From a virus: a stretch of 19,700 nucleotides of DNA. Both the position numbers and the translations under genes were made by a program. Of this stretch, positions 3,344 to 11,995 are shown piece by piece (positions within the stretch are counted from its first letter, which is position 1; each line of letters opens with the position of its first letter). Location of the stretch: UHGV virus genome UHGV-0129547; one strand, written 5' to 3'. Below the pieces are notes generated by a model. It saw only the letters and a program-made list of their open reading frames with translations. It was not told where the DNA came from and made no database searches.

Positions 3344-3506
3344 GATTCCTCCTTGCTGCCAGTCGCAACCATTTTTTATCAACCAGGCTGGCGGTATATC
3401 CGAGCAGTGTTGGTATTTCGGATGGTTTCAGCTCAGGCTTACGCTTACGACTATTTGGTACTCTGTAGATGTGTCCGTTCATGACACGAATAAGCGGTGT
3501 AGCCAT
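3336..3506 (-). CDS. ninE: NinE-like protein (56 aa)
   Basis: Manual translation: [56 protein letters not shown]. The ATG overlaps the ybcN stop (TAATG) and the stop overlaps the ybcO start, the classic translationally coupled nin arrangement. Below the ORF-track cutoff. Confidence 0.75.
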   Translation of the reverse strand: MATPLIRVMNGHIYRVPNSRKRKPELKPSEIPTLLGYTASLVDKKWLRLAARRNHG

Positions 3507-3961
3507 TACGCCTCCTGCTTGTCGCGCAGCAGCTGGAACTCGCAGCTCTGCGGAATAGTCAGGTGGCAGCCAATATTCATCGCCCAGGCTTCAACCTTAC
3601 ACAGGAAGACATACATCTCTCCGCTATCAAGATCGGAGGTATGACGTAATGACTGAATGGTGGTGATTTCACCGGTTACGACATCAACCAGTTCCTTGGT
3701 TTCATAACCGAGATAAGTGTGTTTGAGAGCATCTTTTACCCAAGCTGGAGTGGCGAACGTTTTCCCCCTGCTGATGAGGTATTCACTGATTTCGCTGTAC
3801 CACATGTGGCTGAGTGCATTCTGGGAAAGACTGCGTCTCTCACGCCACGGTTTAAGCACCATGCGAAAGCATTTGCCGTCCTCCAGATAAGGCTGGATCT
3901 GCCGACCGATAGCGGTGAAGTTGCCGCGATGCAATTTGATACCATCTTGTGGGAGGTTCAC
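3506..3961 (-). CDS. ybcN: YbcN-like nin-region protein (DUF1367)
   Basis: 151-aa [65 protein letters not shown]..., matching DLP12 YbcN from memory. Confidence 0.9.
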
Positions 3962-4155
3962 GCTTCACCTCCGCAGAGATCAAACGTTGGATGCAAAATA
4001 TCGCAGGTGCATTTCTGCATCTGTGAATGGAGAAGAGAGGTTAGATTGTATGTGCGCATAAACGTCCCCGTTTAGCGCAGAAGTCACCGGAGTTGTTCAA
4101 GCTCCAATGGCATGATTATGGCTGGTTGATTATGGGAAATCAAATGTGCTGAAAA

Positions 4156-4662
4156 TTAGTCTGCCAAGTCTTCCTCCGTCACAACTGGGTAATTCCAAAT
4201 ATCAAAAAAAGCTATAGCCTCCTGCCATTTGTTCCATAAGTTATCAAGTACTTGTGTAGGTTCCGTACTTTTAAAAACAGAAACAGCCGCATCACCGTTA
4301 TGAACTTCCTCGTACAGTTCCATTATTAGCAGATTAACAAAGTACTGTTTCAACATTAATGCCTGATTACCTTCTTTCTGCTGGCTATCCTGCTTGATGA
4401 TCTCCATCGCCCGTACCAGGCACCTGATGATATCCGCTGCATCATTAACGCTCCATTCAGATCCGCGCTTATCTTTAGCTGATGTATTGGCTCTCTCAGC
4501 GCAAGCCTTTAAAGACTCATAAAGGTAAACTCTATTTTGTAGCTGCAGCGCTTTTTTTGACGTGTACCAACTTGCAAGCGCCGACCCCGCTGCGGCTAAT
4601 GTGCCAAACGCAGAAATGCCTGCTGCTATTGCACTTAAGTCGGCACTGTCAAAGTTCCACAT
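4156..4662 (-). CDS. Hypothetical membrane-anchored protein (168 aa), accessory gene
   Basis: ORF in an AT-rich segment; N-terminal hydrophobic stretch (LSAIAAGISAFGTLAAAGSALASW) suggests one TM helix or signal anchor; the rest is charged and helix-like. Separated from the antirepressor gene by a terminator. No recognised family. Confidence 0.55.
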   Translation of the reverse strand: MWNFDSADLSAIAAGISAFGTLAAAGSALASWYTSKKALQLQNRVYLYESLKACAERANTSAKDKRGSEWSVNDAADIIRCLVRAMEIIKQDSQQKEGNQALMLKQYFVNLLIMELYEEVHNGDAAVSVFKSTEPTQVLDNLWNKWQEAIAFFDIWNYPVVTEEDLAD

Positions 4663-4842
4663 TATCGTTACACCTTATATAAATACCCCTCAGTAATATC
4701 CAATAAGGTATGTGAACAATCAATATAATTTTATCCGTATCGGCACATAGCGATTTAAATGCTACTGGTAATGGTATCTTTTAGATTATTTCGTCCAGTT
4801 TACAGCACCCGTATTTTATGAAATGGACTCGCACATTACCCC

Positions 4843-4881
4843 AAAAAATGCCAGCACTTCCGTTATCGTAGAATGCTGGCA
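4843..4881 (-). terminator. Putative Rho-independent terminator after the antirepressor gene
   Basis: Stem GCCAGCA/TGCTGGC (4849-4881) with a long loop; on the minus strand it is followed by TTTTTTGGGG (plus-strand CCCCAAAAAA at 4839-4848). Confidence 0.45.
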
Positions 4882-4900
4882 GTATTTCTAACTAGTGACT

Positions 4901-5569
4901 TTATTGCAACAGATTCTGACGGAAATATGGCAACACTCTGCTCCACTTATTATCCTGCCAAGGCTGGAGTTTTACATGTGCCGTTTCTCTGGCAAGGATT
5001 TCGCGCGCCTTATGTAGTATCTGGGGATATTCTTGCCCGATAGAAGTAAAGCGACCAGCTTCGCGGTGCTCCGCAACCTGAAGAAGTGGAGTAACATTCT
5101 GGCAGGCGGTTAACATCACATCCCCTGCTCGCCATAACCAAGCAAGTGTGCAAAGTTCGTTATCAGTGAATTGTTTTATGATTGGGGATTGTTGAACTTC
5201 TCGATCGAGAATATCCAGAACCCAACGGCGGAACTCTTTGGCTACAGGAGTGCGGGCGAACATGGCGATCAAATGGGCTCCGCGGAGAGAGAAAACACGT
5301 ACTTTCTTCTTCAAGTTTCGAGTACTTTTCGAGGTACTCAGATCAAGTACCTCGACATCATTCTCTGAGGTACTGACTTCAAGCACTCTAGTCATACTAC
5401 TGGAAAATTCGTCAGCATATTTGTTGTAAATCATCGTGACTGCGCGACTATTCGAATACTTCAGTGCTCTTGCTAGGTTGGATGAAGTTAGCCATATTCC
5501 GGCAATATTTGCCACTGGCACTAGTGCTTCACCTTGGAAGTTCAGATCTGATGTTGCTACAATACTCAT
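4901..5569 (-). CDS. Antirepressor-like protein (Bro-N/KilA-N-type motif)
   Basis: Segment GAHLIAMFARTPVAKEFRRWVLDIL matches the conserved P-x-AK-x-F-x-x-WV motif of Bro-N/antirepressor domains (compare P22 Ant ...SKLPSAKRFKRWV...). Lies immediately downstream of an Arc-like gene and divergent from a Mnt-like gene. Preferred start is the ATG at 5569 (AAGGA 8 nt upstream); the ORF-track start at 5650 has a weak SD and overlaps the arc-like stop. Confidence 0.6.
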   Translation of the reverse strand: MSIVATSDLNFQGEALVPVANIAGIWLTSSNLARALKYSNSRAVTMIYNKYADEFSSSMTRVLEVSTSENDVEVLDLSTSKSTRNLKKKVRVFSLRGAHLIAMFARTPVAKEFRRWVLDILDREVQQSPIIKQFTDNELCTLAWLWRAGDVMLTACQNVTPLLQVAEHREAGRFTSIGQEYPQILHKAREILARETAHVKLQPWQDNKWSRVLPYFRQNLLQ

Positions 5570-5639
5570 GTCGATATTTCCTTCGCGGTTATTTTCGATA
5601 GAAGCCCCTAAGGTTGCCGCCAGTGGGGCTTCGCTGTTT

Positions 5640-5798
5640 CTAGCGAGCATGTATCCGTGCTCTAAATTTCAATGCCCATACAAGCGCCTGAACAATAGCT
5701 GCGTTCTCAGACATCCCTTCCTCCTGAGCAATTCGCTTGAATTCATCCTTCACTTTTTGCGGATAGCGAAGGGTAATTTTTACCTCTTTCTTTTCCAT
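5640..5798 (-). CDS. Arc-like ribbon-helix-helix repressor (52 aa)
   Basis: From the ATG at 5798 (GAGG 8 nt upstream): MEKKEVKITLRYPQKVKDEFKRIAQEEGMSENAAIVQALVWALKF..., with the RHH pattern of P22 Arc (basic N-terminal beta strand followed by two helices). Confidence 0.7.
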   Translation of the reverse strand: MEKKEVKITLRYPQKVKDEFKRIAQEEGMSENAAIVQALVWALKFRARIHAR

Positions 5799-5810
5799 TG
5801 ACATAACCTC

Positions 5811-5875
5811 ATGAGGCCACAATGACACCATGAGGCCATAATGCCACCATTGAATTGATGTGGCAATATGGCACC
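5811..5875. promoter_or_regulatory. Tandem direct repeats in the arc/mnt divergent intergenic region; putative RHH-repressor operators
   Basis: ATGAGGCCACAATGACACC (5811-5829) and ATGAGGCCATAATGCCACC (5830-5848) are adjacent 19-bp near-identical repeats; a third degenerate copy TGGCAATATGGCACC lies at 5861-5875. They sit between the divergent Arc-like and Mnt-like starts. Confidence 0.4.
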
Positions 5876-5897
5876 ATTCATTTTTTTGGGGGTTCCA

Positions 5898-6215
5898 ATG
5901 GCTGACAAACAAGTAAAAGACTACGATAAGTTTAACCTCCGTTTCCCCGATGGGATGCGTGAAGCTATAGCTGAACGAGCCAAACGAAACGGGCGCTCAA
6001 TGAATTCAGAAATCATTCAAATACTCCAAGATGCCATAGAAGGAAGTTCTGAACTATCTAAACGTTTAAATTTAGTTGGGTTTATTCGAGGTGACAGAGA
6101 GATACGTGACCTGGAAGATAATGCAAGCAAACTTGCGTTGTATATCGATCATAGAACACAAGAGTTTAAACAAATTTTATTGGAAGATTTAAAATTACTC
6201 CTTAATCATGATTAA
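5898..6215 (+). CDS. Mnt-like ribbon-helix-helix repressor
   Basis: From the ATG at 5898: MADKQVKDYDKFNLRFPDGMREAIAERAKRNGRSMNSEIIQILQDAIEG..., strongly resembling P22 Mnt (...FNFRMPMEVREKLKFRAEANGRSMNSELLQIVQDAL...) from memory. Confidence 0.75.
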   Translation: MADKQVKDYDKFNLRFPDGMREAIAERAKRNGRSMNSEIIQILQDAIEGSSELSKRLNLVGFIRGDREIRDLEDNASKLALYIDHRTQEFKQILLEDLKLLLNHD

Positions 6216-6259
6216 TGTTAACATTTTCCCAAAATCCAATTGATAGAGGAGTTATTTAT

Positions 6260-6613
6260 ATGCGTATTAAAATCATGCCTCTCCCAAGTACTATCCAAAT
6301 GGGCCAAAAAAAACGGACAACAAGTGCAGCAGTATCCACAACGTTTTTTGGCCCAAATAGTCTTAAACCACAAGGAGATAGCCTTGAAAATACAGCAAAG
6401 AAAAACTCTTCAATTTTGCGAGAAAAAAACTACAGAAAAATTGCTGAAACACTATATAAAACTGGGGTCATAACTATGGCAACATTTGATAGAGAATGTA
6501 ATTTAGGAGGTAAAGACAGAAAGTACTTGCGACATATTTTTTCCCTACTTTTGTCAGAAAAAATCAAATCAAAACAAATCAGAATAACCCGCAAGAAAAA
6601 ACAGAACAAATAA
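6260..6613 (+). CDS. Hypothetical basic (Lys/Arg-rich) protein, 117 aa
   Basis: ATG at 6260 preceded by GAGGAG with an 8-nt spacer, directly downstream of the mnt-like gene; very AT-rich, with a Lys-rich C-terminus (...IRITRKKKQNK). Could be spurious low-complexity coding. Confidence 0.35.
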   Translation: MRIKIMPLPSTIQMGQKKRTTSAAVSTTFFGPNSLKPQGDSLENTAKKNSSILREKNYRKIAETLYKTGVITMATFDRECNLGGKDRKYLRHIFSLLLSEKIKSKQIRITRKKKQNK

Positions 6614-6692
6614 AACGCCAGCGAAAACTTCTCTTTATTTTCATAAGAAAAGAGCATAATTACCAGTTTTCCATATAATCCATAAGTTATGC

Positions 6693-6986
6693 TTATGCTG
6701 TAGTCCTCCCATATACCGCCAACACCCGCTTCATCGCGGCACTCTGGCGACACTCCTTAAAAATCAGATTCGTGCTCACCTTTCCTTCCCGTTCTTCTCT
6801 GGTAGCGAACCGGTAATACACCGTTCGCCAGACCTTACCATCAATGACCAGGATTCCTGCCCGCGCCATTTTAGCCGCAGCCTGATTTATGCTGGTTACT
6901 GTTGCGCCTGTTACCGCGGTAACGTCCTGCGCACAGAAGCTCTTATGCGTCCCCAGGTAATAAATAATTGCCTCTTTGCCCGTCAT
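6693..6986 (-). CDS. ren: Ren-like protein
   Basis: 97-aa ORF MTGKEAIIYYLGTHKSFCAQDVTAVTGATVTSINQAAAKMARAGILVIDGKVWRTVYYRFATREEREGK..., near-identical to lambda Ren as I recall it; located immediately downstream of P with ATGA overlap. Confidence 0.85.
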   Translation of the reverse strand: MTGKEAIIYYLGTHKSFCAQDVTAVTGATVTSINQAAAKMARAGILVIDGKVWRTVYYRFATREEREGKVSTNLIFKECRQSAAMKRVLAVYGRTTA

Positions 6987-7684
6987 ACACTTGCTCCTTT
7001 CAGTCCGAACTTAGCTTTGATTTCTGCGATCTTCGCCAAAGCCTGTGCACGATTTAGAGGTCTACCGCCCATGACAGGAAGTTGTTTTACTGGTTCAGGT
7101 ATAGCCTCACCACGGTTAATTAGCGCGTTCATACAGGACAGTTCATCGGCAGCCTTGCGCCGTAATTCCGCGTCAGTCAACGCATTGGCCCGCATATTCT
7201 GGTACAGGTTGGTAACCAACCAGTAGTGCGCGTTTGATTTCCATGGATAAGACTCTGCATCTGGATACAGGCCACGCTTCCGGCAATACTCGTAAACCAT
7301 ATCAACCAGCTCGCTGGTGTTTGGTAGTCCGGCAATAACGGATGCTTCTTCCCGGCACCAGGCTACAAACTGCCCGGGTGATGGCAGGAATGGTCGATTC
7401 TGCCGACGGGCTACGCGCATTCCTGCGTTAACCTGTTCCATTGTGGTGATCCCGTTTTCCCGGAAAGCCAGAACCCACTGGCGGCGGATTTCGTTCAGTT
7501 CGTTCTGGTCCCGGTTAGCCAGGCTCGCCGGGAAAGTTGCCAGTAACTGGCTGAACACACCATTGATGATCTGCGCTACCTGCTGTACCTGCGGCTTTTC
7601 GTCGTACTGTTCCGGCATGTTGTTGGCGATCCGGCGCATCTGCTCACGGTCAAAGTTAACCATCTGTGCGGCGATGTTTTTCAT
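6983..7684 (-). CDS. P: Replication protein P (DnaB helicase loader)
   Basis: 233-aa ORF MKNIAAQMVNFDREQMRRIANNMPEQYDEKPQVQQVAQIINGVFSQLLATF...AKFGLKGASV, essentially lambda P from memory. Confidence 0.95.
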   Translation of the reverse strand: MKNIAAQMVNFDREQMRRIANNMPEQYDEKPQVQQVAQIINGVFSQLLATFPASLANRDQNELNEIRRQWVLAFRENGITTMEQVNAGMRVARRQNRPFLPSPGQFVAWCREEASVIAGLPNTSELVDMVYEYCRKRGLYPDAESYPWKSNAHYWLVTNLYQNMRANALTDAELRRKAADELSCMNALINRGEAIPEPVKQLPVMGGRPLNRAQALAKIAEIKAKFGLKGASV

Positions 7685-10343: not shown

Positions 10344-11192
10344 ATGTCTTCGATTTGGGGAAAAAAGTTGATGACGAAAGAACAAGAGTCAAACACTGAT
10401 GAAGTGAAACCAGAGCAAGGAAGTTTGTTTGAATTAGAATTTCATGAATATACACCTTCAAGCTTAGGCACAGCACACCTTTCTGGTTTCGCTATTGCCA
10501 CTGATGAAATGGAATATGCAGTTAAAAGCATGCGCTCCACCCCACCTTTTCCTGTACAAAACCCAACTCAAGTACCGGCAGCGGAATGGTTTTGCACAAA
10601 TTTAGCTGAAAAATGCGGCATCGCTACACCTGTGTGCAAAATTCTCAAGTGTATTGCTAATGGGGAGTATGTTTTTGGCTCTCGCATAGAGTTTTCAGCC
10701 TGGAAATCTGGTCTCAATAGTCCTCAATGGATAAATTTGCTCTCAAATGCTTCTGAATCCTTAAAGAAGCAACTCTGGGCAATTTATGCATTTGATCAGT
10801 TTGTATATAACATTGACAGACACCTCAACAACTACTTATACATGGAAAACACCCGAGGCAATGTTATAGTTAAAACATTCGATTTTAGTCTAAGCTCTTT
10901 TGTTATAGGCTGGCCACGAAATACCCCTCATATACTACCAACAGACTCCAGTACAACAACAAACTGGACGATTGCTAAACAATTCATTGGCGACACTGAT
11001 GATCTGAGAAAGTGCGCATTATCTGTCCTTGACAAAATTGAAAAAATTGGAGTTGAGGCTATATCTGATATACTTAACTCTATGCCTGAAGCATGGATGC
11101 CACCAATGCATAAGGAGTATTTTTTGAAGTGGTGGGACAGCGAGGAGCGAATCGATAGGCTAAATGCCATAAGACTGGAGATAACATCTTGA
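10344..11192 (+). CDS. Kinase-fold protein with HipA/PI3K-like catalytic loop (282 aa); candidate effector of a lysogen-expressed two-gene system
   Basis: ATG at 10344 with AGAGG 6 nt upstream, 46 nt after the repressor stop. Residues 158-163 DRHLNN (10815-10832) match the DxHxxN / DRHxxN catalytic loop of HipA-like and PI3/4-kinase-like folds; FDFS at residues 179-182 resembles the Mg-binding DFG-like/YDLVS motif that follows it in HipA. AT-rich coding sequence. Much shorter than canonical HipA. Confidence 0.6.
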   Translation: MSSIWGKKLMTKEQESNTDEVKPEQGSLFELEFHEYTPSSLGTAHLSGFAIATDEMEYAVKSMRSTPPFPVQNPTQVPAAEWFCTNLAEKCGIATPVCKILKCIANGEYVFGSRIEFSAWKSGLNSPQWINLLSNASESLKKQLWAIYAFDQFVYNIDRHLNNYLYMENTRGNVIVKTFDFSLSSFVIGWPRNTPHILPTDSSTTTNWTIAKQFIGDTDDLRKCALSVLDKIEKIGVEAISDILNSMPEAWMPPMHKEYFLKWWDSEERIDRLNAIRLEITS

Positions 11193-11995
11193 AAACTTTC
11201 AAATACAGCTTAATCAGAGTTACACCGAACTTAGAGAAAGGTGAAACGATTAACGTTGGTTTGATCGTTTACCATGACTCTGACATAGACGTACGTATGC
11301 TCAATTCAGTTTCAAAACTTAAAGCGATTGACAAAGATCTTACCTTAGATTACTTAGAGGATCTTTCGACCTCGCTTTTTGATTTGTCACAAAAAATCAA
11401 CAATGCTGAACTTCTTCCTTGTCTTTTTAAGGGAGCATTATCGTTATCGTCATTTGGCATGTTCACTCTTCAAGCCAACGAAGATTACGAAGCTAAAGTT
11501 ACTGATCTAATGAATCGGTTAGTAAACCCACAAAAACAGCCACATAAACACTTGAAAAAAAAGGTTTTTTCTGAATTAAAATCCACCTTTATACAACATG
11601 GAATTTTCAGTAAGTATTTTGAAGATCTTTCCCAACATAAAATCGTAGCTAATTATCCAATTAGTAATGAAGAAGGGTTAGTTGCAGATTTTTTGTTAAA
11701 AAATGGCAAATACCATCTTACAGAAACATTAGATTTTCGTTCTGAAAATATAAAAAAACAAATGGGTGAAGCTGCGATAAGTGTTTTAACAATTACTAAA
11801 GCCTACGAATTATACAATTCAAATATTGATTCATTTGTAATTTTTGCCGCTGAAACGACAGCACAAGAAAAGTCAGCAAAACAGCAGCTAAATCTACTGG
11901 AAAAACACGCTGATAATCTTATCAACGCATATAGCAAAGAAGACATGCGTTCATATTACGAAAAGATGCTGAATGCTGCCTCTATGTTACAGTAG
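11189..11995 (+). CDS. DUF3037-like protein (268 aa), partner of the kinase-fold gene
   Basis: TTG start at 11189 overlapping the upstream TGA (T-TGA coupling), GGAG 10 nt upstream. N-terminus ...YSLIRVTPNLEKGETINVGLIVY... matches my recollection of the DUF3037 N-terminal signature (R-x-V-P-x-x-x-x-G-E-x-I-N-V-G). AT-rich. Followed by a terminator. Confidence 0.6.
   Translation: MKTFKYSLIRVTPNLEKGETINVGLIVYHDSDIDVRMLNSVSKLKAIDKDLTLDYLEDLSTSLFDLSQKINNAELLPCLFKGALSLSSFGMFTLQANEDYEAKVTDLMNRLVNPQKQPHKHLKKKVFSELKSTFIQHGIFSKYFEDLSQHKIVANYPISNEEGLVADFLLKNGKYHLTETLDFRSENIKKQMGEAAISVLTITKAYELYNSNIDSFVIFAAETTAQEKSAKQQLNLLEKHADNLINAYSKEDMRSYYEKMLNAASMLQ

Follow-up and report, generated by a model that had tools for sequence, protein, structure and literature searches.

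The DNA analyzed here (the window) is a stretch of 19,700 nucleotides of the virus genome UHGV-0129547, and its gene content identifies it as a lambdoid E. coli prophage. The minus strand carries an early-right operon in the order cro, a YdaT-like "cII", O, P and ren, followed by an inserted regulatory module, a gene for a 168-aa protein (ORF168) and ylcH-ninB(ybcN)-ninE-ybcO-rusA-ylcG-Q. On the plus strand lie cI, a HipA-like pair, kil-gam-bet-exo and int. The region around ORF168 contains the following features:

3506–3961, minus strand: ninB/ybcN, a conserved right-hand neighbor of the slot occupied by ORF168
3958–4059, minus strand: ylcH-like ORF of 33 codons, also a conserved right-hand neighbor of the slot
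4148–4849, minus strand: single-gene cargo cassette (promoter region plus CDS), limits approximate, from blastn break points and junction sequences
4156–4662, minus strand: CDS of ORF168, 168 aa, PHROG 1779, with an ATG start and the stop codon at 4156–4158
4159–4179, minus strand: acidic C-terminal tail TEEDLAD (family consensus T-D/E-E-D-L-x-D at the C-terminus)
4570–4638, minus strand: hydrophobic Ala/Gly/Ser-rich helix, residues 9–31, presumed N-out/C-in anchor, from hydropathy and conservation
4671–4676, minus strand: Shine-Dalgarno sequence AAGGTG, 8 nt before the ATG (GAGGTG or AAGG in homologs)
4683–4711, no strand assigned: inverted repeat ATACC-N19-GGTAT, bracketing the -10 element
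4695–4723, minus strand: predicted sigma-70 promoter (-35 TTGATT at 4718–4723, 17-nt spacer, -10 GATATT at 4695–4700)
4843–4880, minus strand: terminator-like hairpin GCCAGCA...TGCTGGC with a T6 run, at the left cassette junction
4901–5650, minus strand: antirepressor gene ant, with Bro-N and P22AR_C domains found by domain search
5571–5635, plus strand: sar-like antisense RNA opposite the 5' end of ant (RF00262, E = 2e-4; 34 bits, which is under the Rfam gathering score of 43)
5640–5798, minus strand: Arc-like ribbon-helix-helix repressor, first gene of an arc-ant operon, overlapping ant
5868–6215, plus strand: divergent Mnt-like Arc-domain repressor (Arc domain, E = 6e-20)

The 168-aa ORF given in the preliminary description was confirmed as an ATG-initiated minus-strand gene. 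Its product matches the phrog_1779 HMM over the full length (E = 1.8e-99; residues 1–168 on profile positions 2–169 of 169), which is its sole PHROG match, and the same family was matched by all 26 diverse homologs tested. The earlier statement that no family could be recognized therefore does not stand, though the family is one without known function, so that membership is mechanistically uninformative. Judged from these profile matches, the ORF168 family is uncharacterized yet already catalogued. A profile search of 1.84 billion representative proteins returned relatives in 34 clusters at 50% identity, and thus the family is small and its distribution narrow; at 90% identity there were 14 clusters. 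Members were found only in the nin regions of lambdoid prophages, and no chromosomal homologs were seen.

Comparison of ORF168 with seven diverged homologs gave pN values of 0.18–0.36 and pS values of 0.72–0.96, the latter saturated. The protein is conserved at full length down to ~22% identity, and 12 further ungapped alleles from related loci contain no internal stops; among alleles that are 98–100% identical, substitutions are too few for dN/dS to be informative. The missing annotation is all that would speak for a chance ORF or a decaying remnant with no functional gene. This reading is contradicted by the full-length conservation, by pN lying far under pS and by the intact alleles, and with 34 clusters of relatives at hand we regard it as refuted, with a negligible probability of being correct. 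By these comparative measures, ORF168 is a real gene on which strong purifying selection acts.

Searches for a functional assignment were negative. A Pfam scan of ORF168 yielded nothing beyond a sub-threshold match to Foie-gras_1, NCBIfam gave no match, and the defense HMMs of PADLOC-DB v2.0.0 gave no hits at E ≤ 1. Nothing meaningful emerged when Pfam, NCBIfam and PADLOC scans were extended to 26 homologs, the PADLOC matches being scattered, confined to single members and at E ≥ 0.0018. None of the PHROG families annotated as exclusion was matched by ORF168 or the homologs tested, and a profile search of PDB sequences with the family had a best E > 4. A literature search found nothing on the gene, and it does not appear in the main texts of an EHEC-phage paper (PMC12502783) and a urinary-tract coliphage paper or in the DefensePredictor supplements.

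The protein was initially described as having one N-terminal hydrophobic helix and a charged helical body, and both elements are borne out by the family. A hydrophobic stretch at residues ~8–31 is present in 26 of 26 members, with Kyte-Doolittle values of 1.5–2.5. In the window copy the helix is borderline, with a summed Hessa scale of +2.7 and a maximum of 1.59 over 19-residue Kyte-Doolittle windows, and it ranks among the weakest of the 26 compared. Single-helix members have 0–1 K/R residues before the helix, and 1–5, mostly 2–3, follow it across the 26 members, so that the charges fit an N-out/C-in orientation under the positive-inside rule. One member, P0041, has three extra hydrophobic segments at its N-terminus. 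Conservation along the helix has a periodicity peaking at 100–103 degrees per residue, as in an α-helix, with a conserved face of small residues (S17, A18, G/A20, A23–A25, A27, A28 and an invariant S31) and variable bulky hydrophobics at the other positions. As far as the alignment goes, this is the pattern of a transmembrane helix that packs against another helix.

The AF2 model of the protein, built from 33 sequences, is helical (mean pLDDT 77), and the body, a helical bundle of ~125 aa in this model, has a pI of 4.8. The pLDDT is 85–95 over most of the core (residue blocks 41–90, 101–120 and 141–150) and drops to 72–75 in blocks 91–100, 121–140 and 151–160. Conserved residues are Q42, L51, N59 (in an ERAN motif), W70, W146 and F152–F153; neither the family alignment nor Foldseek revealed a catalytic-looking invariant residue or an enzyme fold, and Foldseek searches of PDB and BFVD with the model returned nothing at E ≤ 0.001. 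Of 27 sequences, 25 share D165 and L166 of the acidic C-terminal tail and 24 share D168; this tail is probably a docking peptide.

A HEPN identity was considered on account of weak Foldseek matches and of a HEPN gene that occupies the same slot elsewhere. It was rejected: the Foldseek matches to HEPN toxins reached only E 0.4–2 with TM about 0.3, hhalign of ORF168 against the HEPN protein from the slot of locus L005 gave a probability of 0.09, and the ORF168 alignment contains no conserved R...H pair (Rx4-6H motif).

The limits of the ORF168 insertion were delineated by comparison with prophages that carry other cargo. In blastn alignments, homology to these prophages stops at 4144–4147, ~10 bp past the ORF168 stop, and resumes at 4850–4872, inside the hairpin; the break points thus define a cassette of ~700 bp consisting of one gene and 187 bp of its own upstream DNA. 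No direct repeats flanking the cassette were found. The ninE-ninB flank is present in 3,723 of 5,426 complete E. coli genomes, and the 801-bp segment 4100–4900 in 181 of them (3.3%), always chromosomal. The view of ORF168 as horizontally acquired cargo is therefore upheld by the excess of the flank over the gene and by the breaks in homology on both sides. The argument from composition that had been offered for it is weak. The "markedly AT-rich segment" is confined to the 238-bp spacer upstream of the gene (4663–4900), which is indeed AT-rich as described (36.1% GC), whereas ORF168 itself, at 44.2%, is close to the window average of 45.8%; ant has 46.5% and ninB 50.9%.

Carriers of ORF168 include E. 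coli O104:H4 and ETEC strains. The 801-bp segment occurs in up to four copies per genome, with three in strain ET358, which was inspected, and it follows that ORF168 does not exclude its own carriers absolutely. The gene is absent from most lambdoid prophages and from all but two of 50,697 phage records. The plaque-forming phages that carry it are PhiR5_1 and PhiR26_1; PhiR5_1 (PV340545) is 99.8% identical to the window over the 801-bp segment and 99.1% over 3400–7000, and its annotation of ORF168 reads hypothetical protein only.

The slot is a variable position between the replication/antirepressor genes and ylcH-ninB. In other E. coli prophages it holds a HEPN-domain gene with a partner gene, a 260-aa protein of no recognized family, or a YajG-like lipoprotein together with a glycine-zipper protein. 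In O104:H4 it contains remnants of emrE and of a recombinase and a broken ant, yet ORF168 is intact; ant, rusA and terminase are pseudogenes in this prophage. The position on the ninB side is conserved. Downstream sequence was sufficient in 55 loci, of which 52 have a co-oriented gene of the NinB/DUF1367 family within 1 kb after the ORF168 homolog, and in 48 it lies within 300 bp; this includes homologs of 43–50% identity from Enterobacter and Phytobacter.

Several further observations concern the right-hand side of the slot. Two close relatives, the IMG/VR contigs L023 and L024, are exceptions in having no ninB, ninE, ybcO or rusA within 4–5 kb downstream of the ORF168 homolog. At 4115–4143 on the minus strand, a promoter-like TTGATT-N17-CATAAT sequence (9/12) with an internal palindrome (TTGATT...AATCAA) starts exactly where homology to the other-cargo prophages resumes, upstream of ylcH-ninB; from its sequence, it may be a real promoter or a linker used for recombination at the hotspot. 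Part of the ninB-upstream/ylcH region (129 bp, window 3991–4119) is duplicated with 89% identity at 4414–4542 of an other-cargo locus, most likely L005, the assignment being inferred from blast output pooled over L002–L007. In L005, this interval overlaps a truncated small ORF upstream of ant. The duplication suggests that a block of ant plus cargo entered by recombination within the ninB-upstream linker.

The ORF168 cassette was proposed to have its own promoter, and this claim is supported by comparison rather than by composition. In eight diverged lineages (the window, L002, L003, L048, L050, L054, L064 and L062/L066), the pattern TTG(A/C)(T/C)(T/A)-N17-GATATT, as TTGATT-N17-GATATT in the window, occupies a fixed position upstream of the ORF168 homolog. 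TTG, GATATT and a few other columns of the alignment are invariant, and each of the eight lineages has a spacer of precisely 17 nt. An A/T-rich tract lies directly upstream of the predicted ORF168 promoter, and a leader of 30–40 nt with a GAGGTG-type Shine-Dalgarno sequence separates the motif from the start codon. Conservation of the element while synonymous sites are saturated across the lineages indicates selection on it. Away from the gene, about six distinct sites fit the pattern on both strands of 1.39 Mb of fetched loci, close to the ~5 estimated by chance. The predicted promoter scores 8/12, which is why a consensus promoter scan found no site in the spacer. The motif is absent upstream of the clade with 43–47% identity and of L053, and several of these homologs are preceded by a hairpin instead.

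The inverted repeat around the -10 element is clear in the window, L002, L050 and L054 and unclear in L003, L048 and L064. Judged from its sequence, it may serve as an operator or fold into a hairpin solely when read-through RNA is made. Control of ORF168 by CI is not indicated, as the cI/cro operators (ATTGCAAT/TAGCAAT type) are unlike the repeat at the ORF168 promoter. A repeat overlapping promoter and leader might be expected if ORF168 were the membrane toxin of an addiction or toxin-antitoxin-like element whose antitoxin, possibly an RNA, had escaped recognition, and its transmembrane helix with a zipper of small residues is typical of pore-forming peptides. We consider this highly improbable: the cassette has no partner ORF, the 238-bp spacer contains no Rfam RNA and no plausible small ORF, and a protein of 168 aa with a large folded cytoplasmic domain does not resemble type I toxins.

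On the other side of the spacer, the hairpin plus T-run that had been described was located on the minus strand (stem 4850–4856/4874–4880, T6 4843–4848), beginning 20 nt after the ant stop codon. It folds with an MFE of -19.8 kcal/mol (z = -2.1), a value matched by 7 of 200 shuffles, and it was not listed by the terminator scan because its loop exceeds 8 nt. By position and structure, it is the predicted 3' end of the arc-ant operon, and it plausibly insulates ORF168 from ant transcription. Hairpins are also present upstream of distant ORF168 homologs in L008 and L060. The location next to an antirepressor module is true of the window, and at least the 3' part of ant always accompanies ORF168 in close E. 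coli relatives, but the association is incidental: diverged homologs follow DUF551 or other genes, and with so variable an upstream neighbor, adjacency to ant is a lineage accident.

The module beside ORF168 resembles P22 immI in several respects: its Arc-like gene overlaps ant, the Mnt-like RHH gene is divergent, a sar-like RNA opposes the ant 5' end, and ant is followed by a terminator. P22 immI adjoins the tail-spike gene, whereas the module of the window sits between ren and ninB. At 5803–5840, two tandem 19-bp repeats (ATAACCTCATGAGGCCACA / ATGACACCATGAGGCCATA), each with a CATGAGG core, separate the arc-ant operon from the mnt-like gene; these repeats are probable Arc/Mnt operators. The Mnt-like gene is directly followed by an ORF of 132 aa (6215–6613, plus strand; 33% G+C, more AT-rich than ORF168) with no Pfam, PHROG, NCBIfam or PADLOC match. 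The equivalent region is annotated as two short ORFs in PhiR5_1, and it may be another cargo gene or non-coding.

A moron, as defined by Juhala et al. 2000 and quoted in PMC3594210, is extra DNA present between two conserved genes in comparison with related phage genomes; the definition given there further includes an own promoter, an own terminator, a differing G+C content and expression from the repressed prophage. The break points and genome counts identify the ORF168 cassette as extra DNA between conserved genes, and the comparative evidence points to a promoter of its own. No downstream terminator was seen within the cassette, where only ~10 bp separate the stop codon from the shared ninB-upstream DNA. 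The sole downstream candidate is a weak hairpin with a T-run at 4002–4019, within that shared DNA, and transcripts would consequently enter ylcH-ninB unless stopped in the shared region. The genetics of ORF168 (a predicted own promoter, a swap-prone slot and retention in a decaying prophage) fit the moron concept, but neither a downstream terminator of the cassette nor a clear G+C contrast is evident. From its sequence context, ORF168 is a genuine and well-delimited cargo gene of a kind that is ordinary in prophages.

What such a gene might do can be approached through known morons, many of which act as lysogenic-conversion factors (PMC3594210). ORF168 could accordingly be a conversion factor unrelated to phages, contributing for example to envelope stress or colonization fitness. 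The moron architecture of the cassette is compatible with such a role, as is the presence of emrE remnants, a YajG-like lipoprotein and a glycine-zipper envelope protein in the slot elsewhere. Yet most of the protein is predicted to lie in the cytoplasm, leaving no domain exposed, and the family is limited to the nin regions of lambdoid prophages, with no chromosomal homologs seen; we therefore judge this role unlikely.

By analogy with known prophage genes, we tentatively favor a different possibility, in line with the preliminary description: ORF168 may be expressed in the lysogen and serve in phage exclusion or abortive infection at the inner membrane, though confidence in this assignment is below even. 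The closest functional analog appears to be gp15 of HK97, a YebO-like superinfection-exclusion moron of the inner membrane (Cumby et al. 2012, summarized in PMC3594210). According to the same summary, gp15 is one small extra gene in a lambdoid phage, is reported to be expressed from the prophage, and encodes a protein that becomes embedded in the inner membrane and keeps the genomes of other phages from entering while leaving receptors untouched (PMC3594210). P22 SieA is likewise a prophage-encoded membrane protein that acts against superinfecting phages (PMC3594210). ORF168 has the same cassette logic as gp15 and a predicted bitopic membrane topology, but it is unrelated in sequence (no YebO Pfam match and no PHROG except 1779), lies in the nin region rather than the tail operon, and is larger, with a predicted folded cytoplasmic bundle and an acidic tail. 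The SieB proteins of lambda and P22 and proteins of the RexB type are also prophage-encoded membrane proteins acting against superinfecting phages, and all of these, like SieA, are polytopic. ORF168 resembles them in being encoded by a prophage and in its predicted membrane location, and differs in having one predicted transmembrane helix and no homology to any of them.

The slot on the upstream side of ylcH-ninB has received ~700 bp in the orientation of the early-right operon, comprising a single gene together with its conserved promoter-like element. In the mechanism that we propose, the product would be bitopic in the inner membrane, with its short N-terminus facing outward, and the small-residue face of the single transmembrane helix would pack against another helix in a homo-oligomer or in a host membrane protein; the cytoplasmic part would comprise the helical bundle and end in the docking peptide TEEDLAD. 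By analogy, the gene would be transcribed from its own promoter in the lysogen, shielded from upstream transcription by the terminator behind ant, and would also be expressed early in lytic growth through N-antiterminated read-through. The protein might then protect the lysogen against other phages in either of two ways. Like gp15 of HK97, it could stop phage genomes from entering at the inner membrane, or its cytoplasmic domain could sense an infection cue and oligomerization of the transmembrane helix could collapse the membrane, resulting in abortive infection.

In favor of an exclusion function, we count the intact ORF168 in the decaying O104:H4 prophage, the defense-like or envelope cargo found in the slot elsewhere (the HEPN gene, the lipoprotein and the glycine-zipper protein), the precedent of HK97 gp15, and the lack of any sign of catalysis. 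Against it stand the lack of homology to characterized exclusion or defense proteins in PHROG and PADLOC, the borderline transmembrane helix of the window copy, the promoter motif missing in some homologs, the missing downstream terminator of the cassette and the multiple copies per genome.

Because ORF168 is co-oriented with the lytic early operon, a role in the lytic cycle is equally compatible with its arrangement. In such a scenario, which we hold to be possible but rather doubtful, ORF168 would be an early accessory protein of the nin region that serves the phage. Driven by pR through N antitermination, with additional expression from its own promoter, it would dock to the membrane and there modulate a host function, such as division or replication anchoring, a protease in the membrane or a membrane-bound defense system. 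The strand and position of the early-right operon, kept in every locus and accompanied by NinB/DUF1367 within 1 kb in 52 of 55, would suit this role, as would the uninterrupted passage from ORF168 into ylcH-ninB with no terminator between them, the carriage of the gene by the plaque-forming PhiR5_1 and PhiR26_1, and the resemblance of the acidic C-terminal peptide to a protein-docking motif. Its occurrence in just two of 50,697 phage records and in few lambdoid prophages, however, argues that ORF168 is dispensable for lytic growth; a selected private promoter and an upstream terminator are hard to explain if read-through from pR sufficed, and a lytic function would not account for an intact gene in a decaying prophage.

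A bolder form of the exclusion hypothesis, which we put forward as speculative and somewhat unlikely, is that PHROG 1779 represents the first family of a new type of single-gene defense, a membrane-anchored sensor-effector equipped with its own promoter. Here the transmembrane helix, through its small-residue zipper, would oligomerize into a pore or jam the DNA-entry channel of the phage, and it would be triggered once the cytoplasmic helical bundle and the acidic peptide at the C-terminus engage a protein of the phage or the host.

What is new in this analysis is the predicted promoter that is invariant across eight diverged lineages. This conserved promoter and the clean cassette boundaries make ORF168 easy to clone and test. 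Were it to prove a defense or exclusion factor, a compact one-gene module with its promoter included would be added to the catalogue, and the ren/ant-ninB junction of lambdoid prophages would be a cargo hotspot worth systematic mining; with a lytic-cycle or unrelated host role, it would be one more uncharacterized accessory gene of the nin region.

The window contains other candidate cargo. At 10344–11995 on the plus strand, immediately downstream of cI, genes for a HipA_2-like kinase (282 aa) and a DUF3037 protein (268 aa) lie in DNA of 28–43% G+C and are annotated as HipA/HipD in PhiR5_1; from their arrangement, they are likely a toxin-antitoxin or defense pair co-transcribed with the repressor. 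Downstream of Q, the minus strand encodes an AraC-family regulator of 237 aa (83–796) and a 214-aa ORF with no Pfam match (1407–2051). Different genes are found at both positions in PhiR5_1, and by this comparison the region downstream of Q looks like another variable cargo position.
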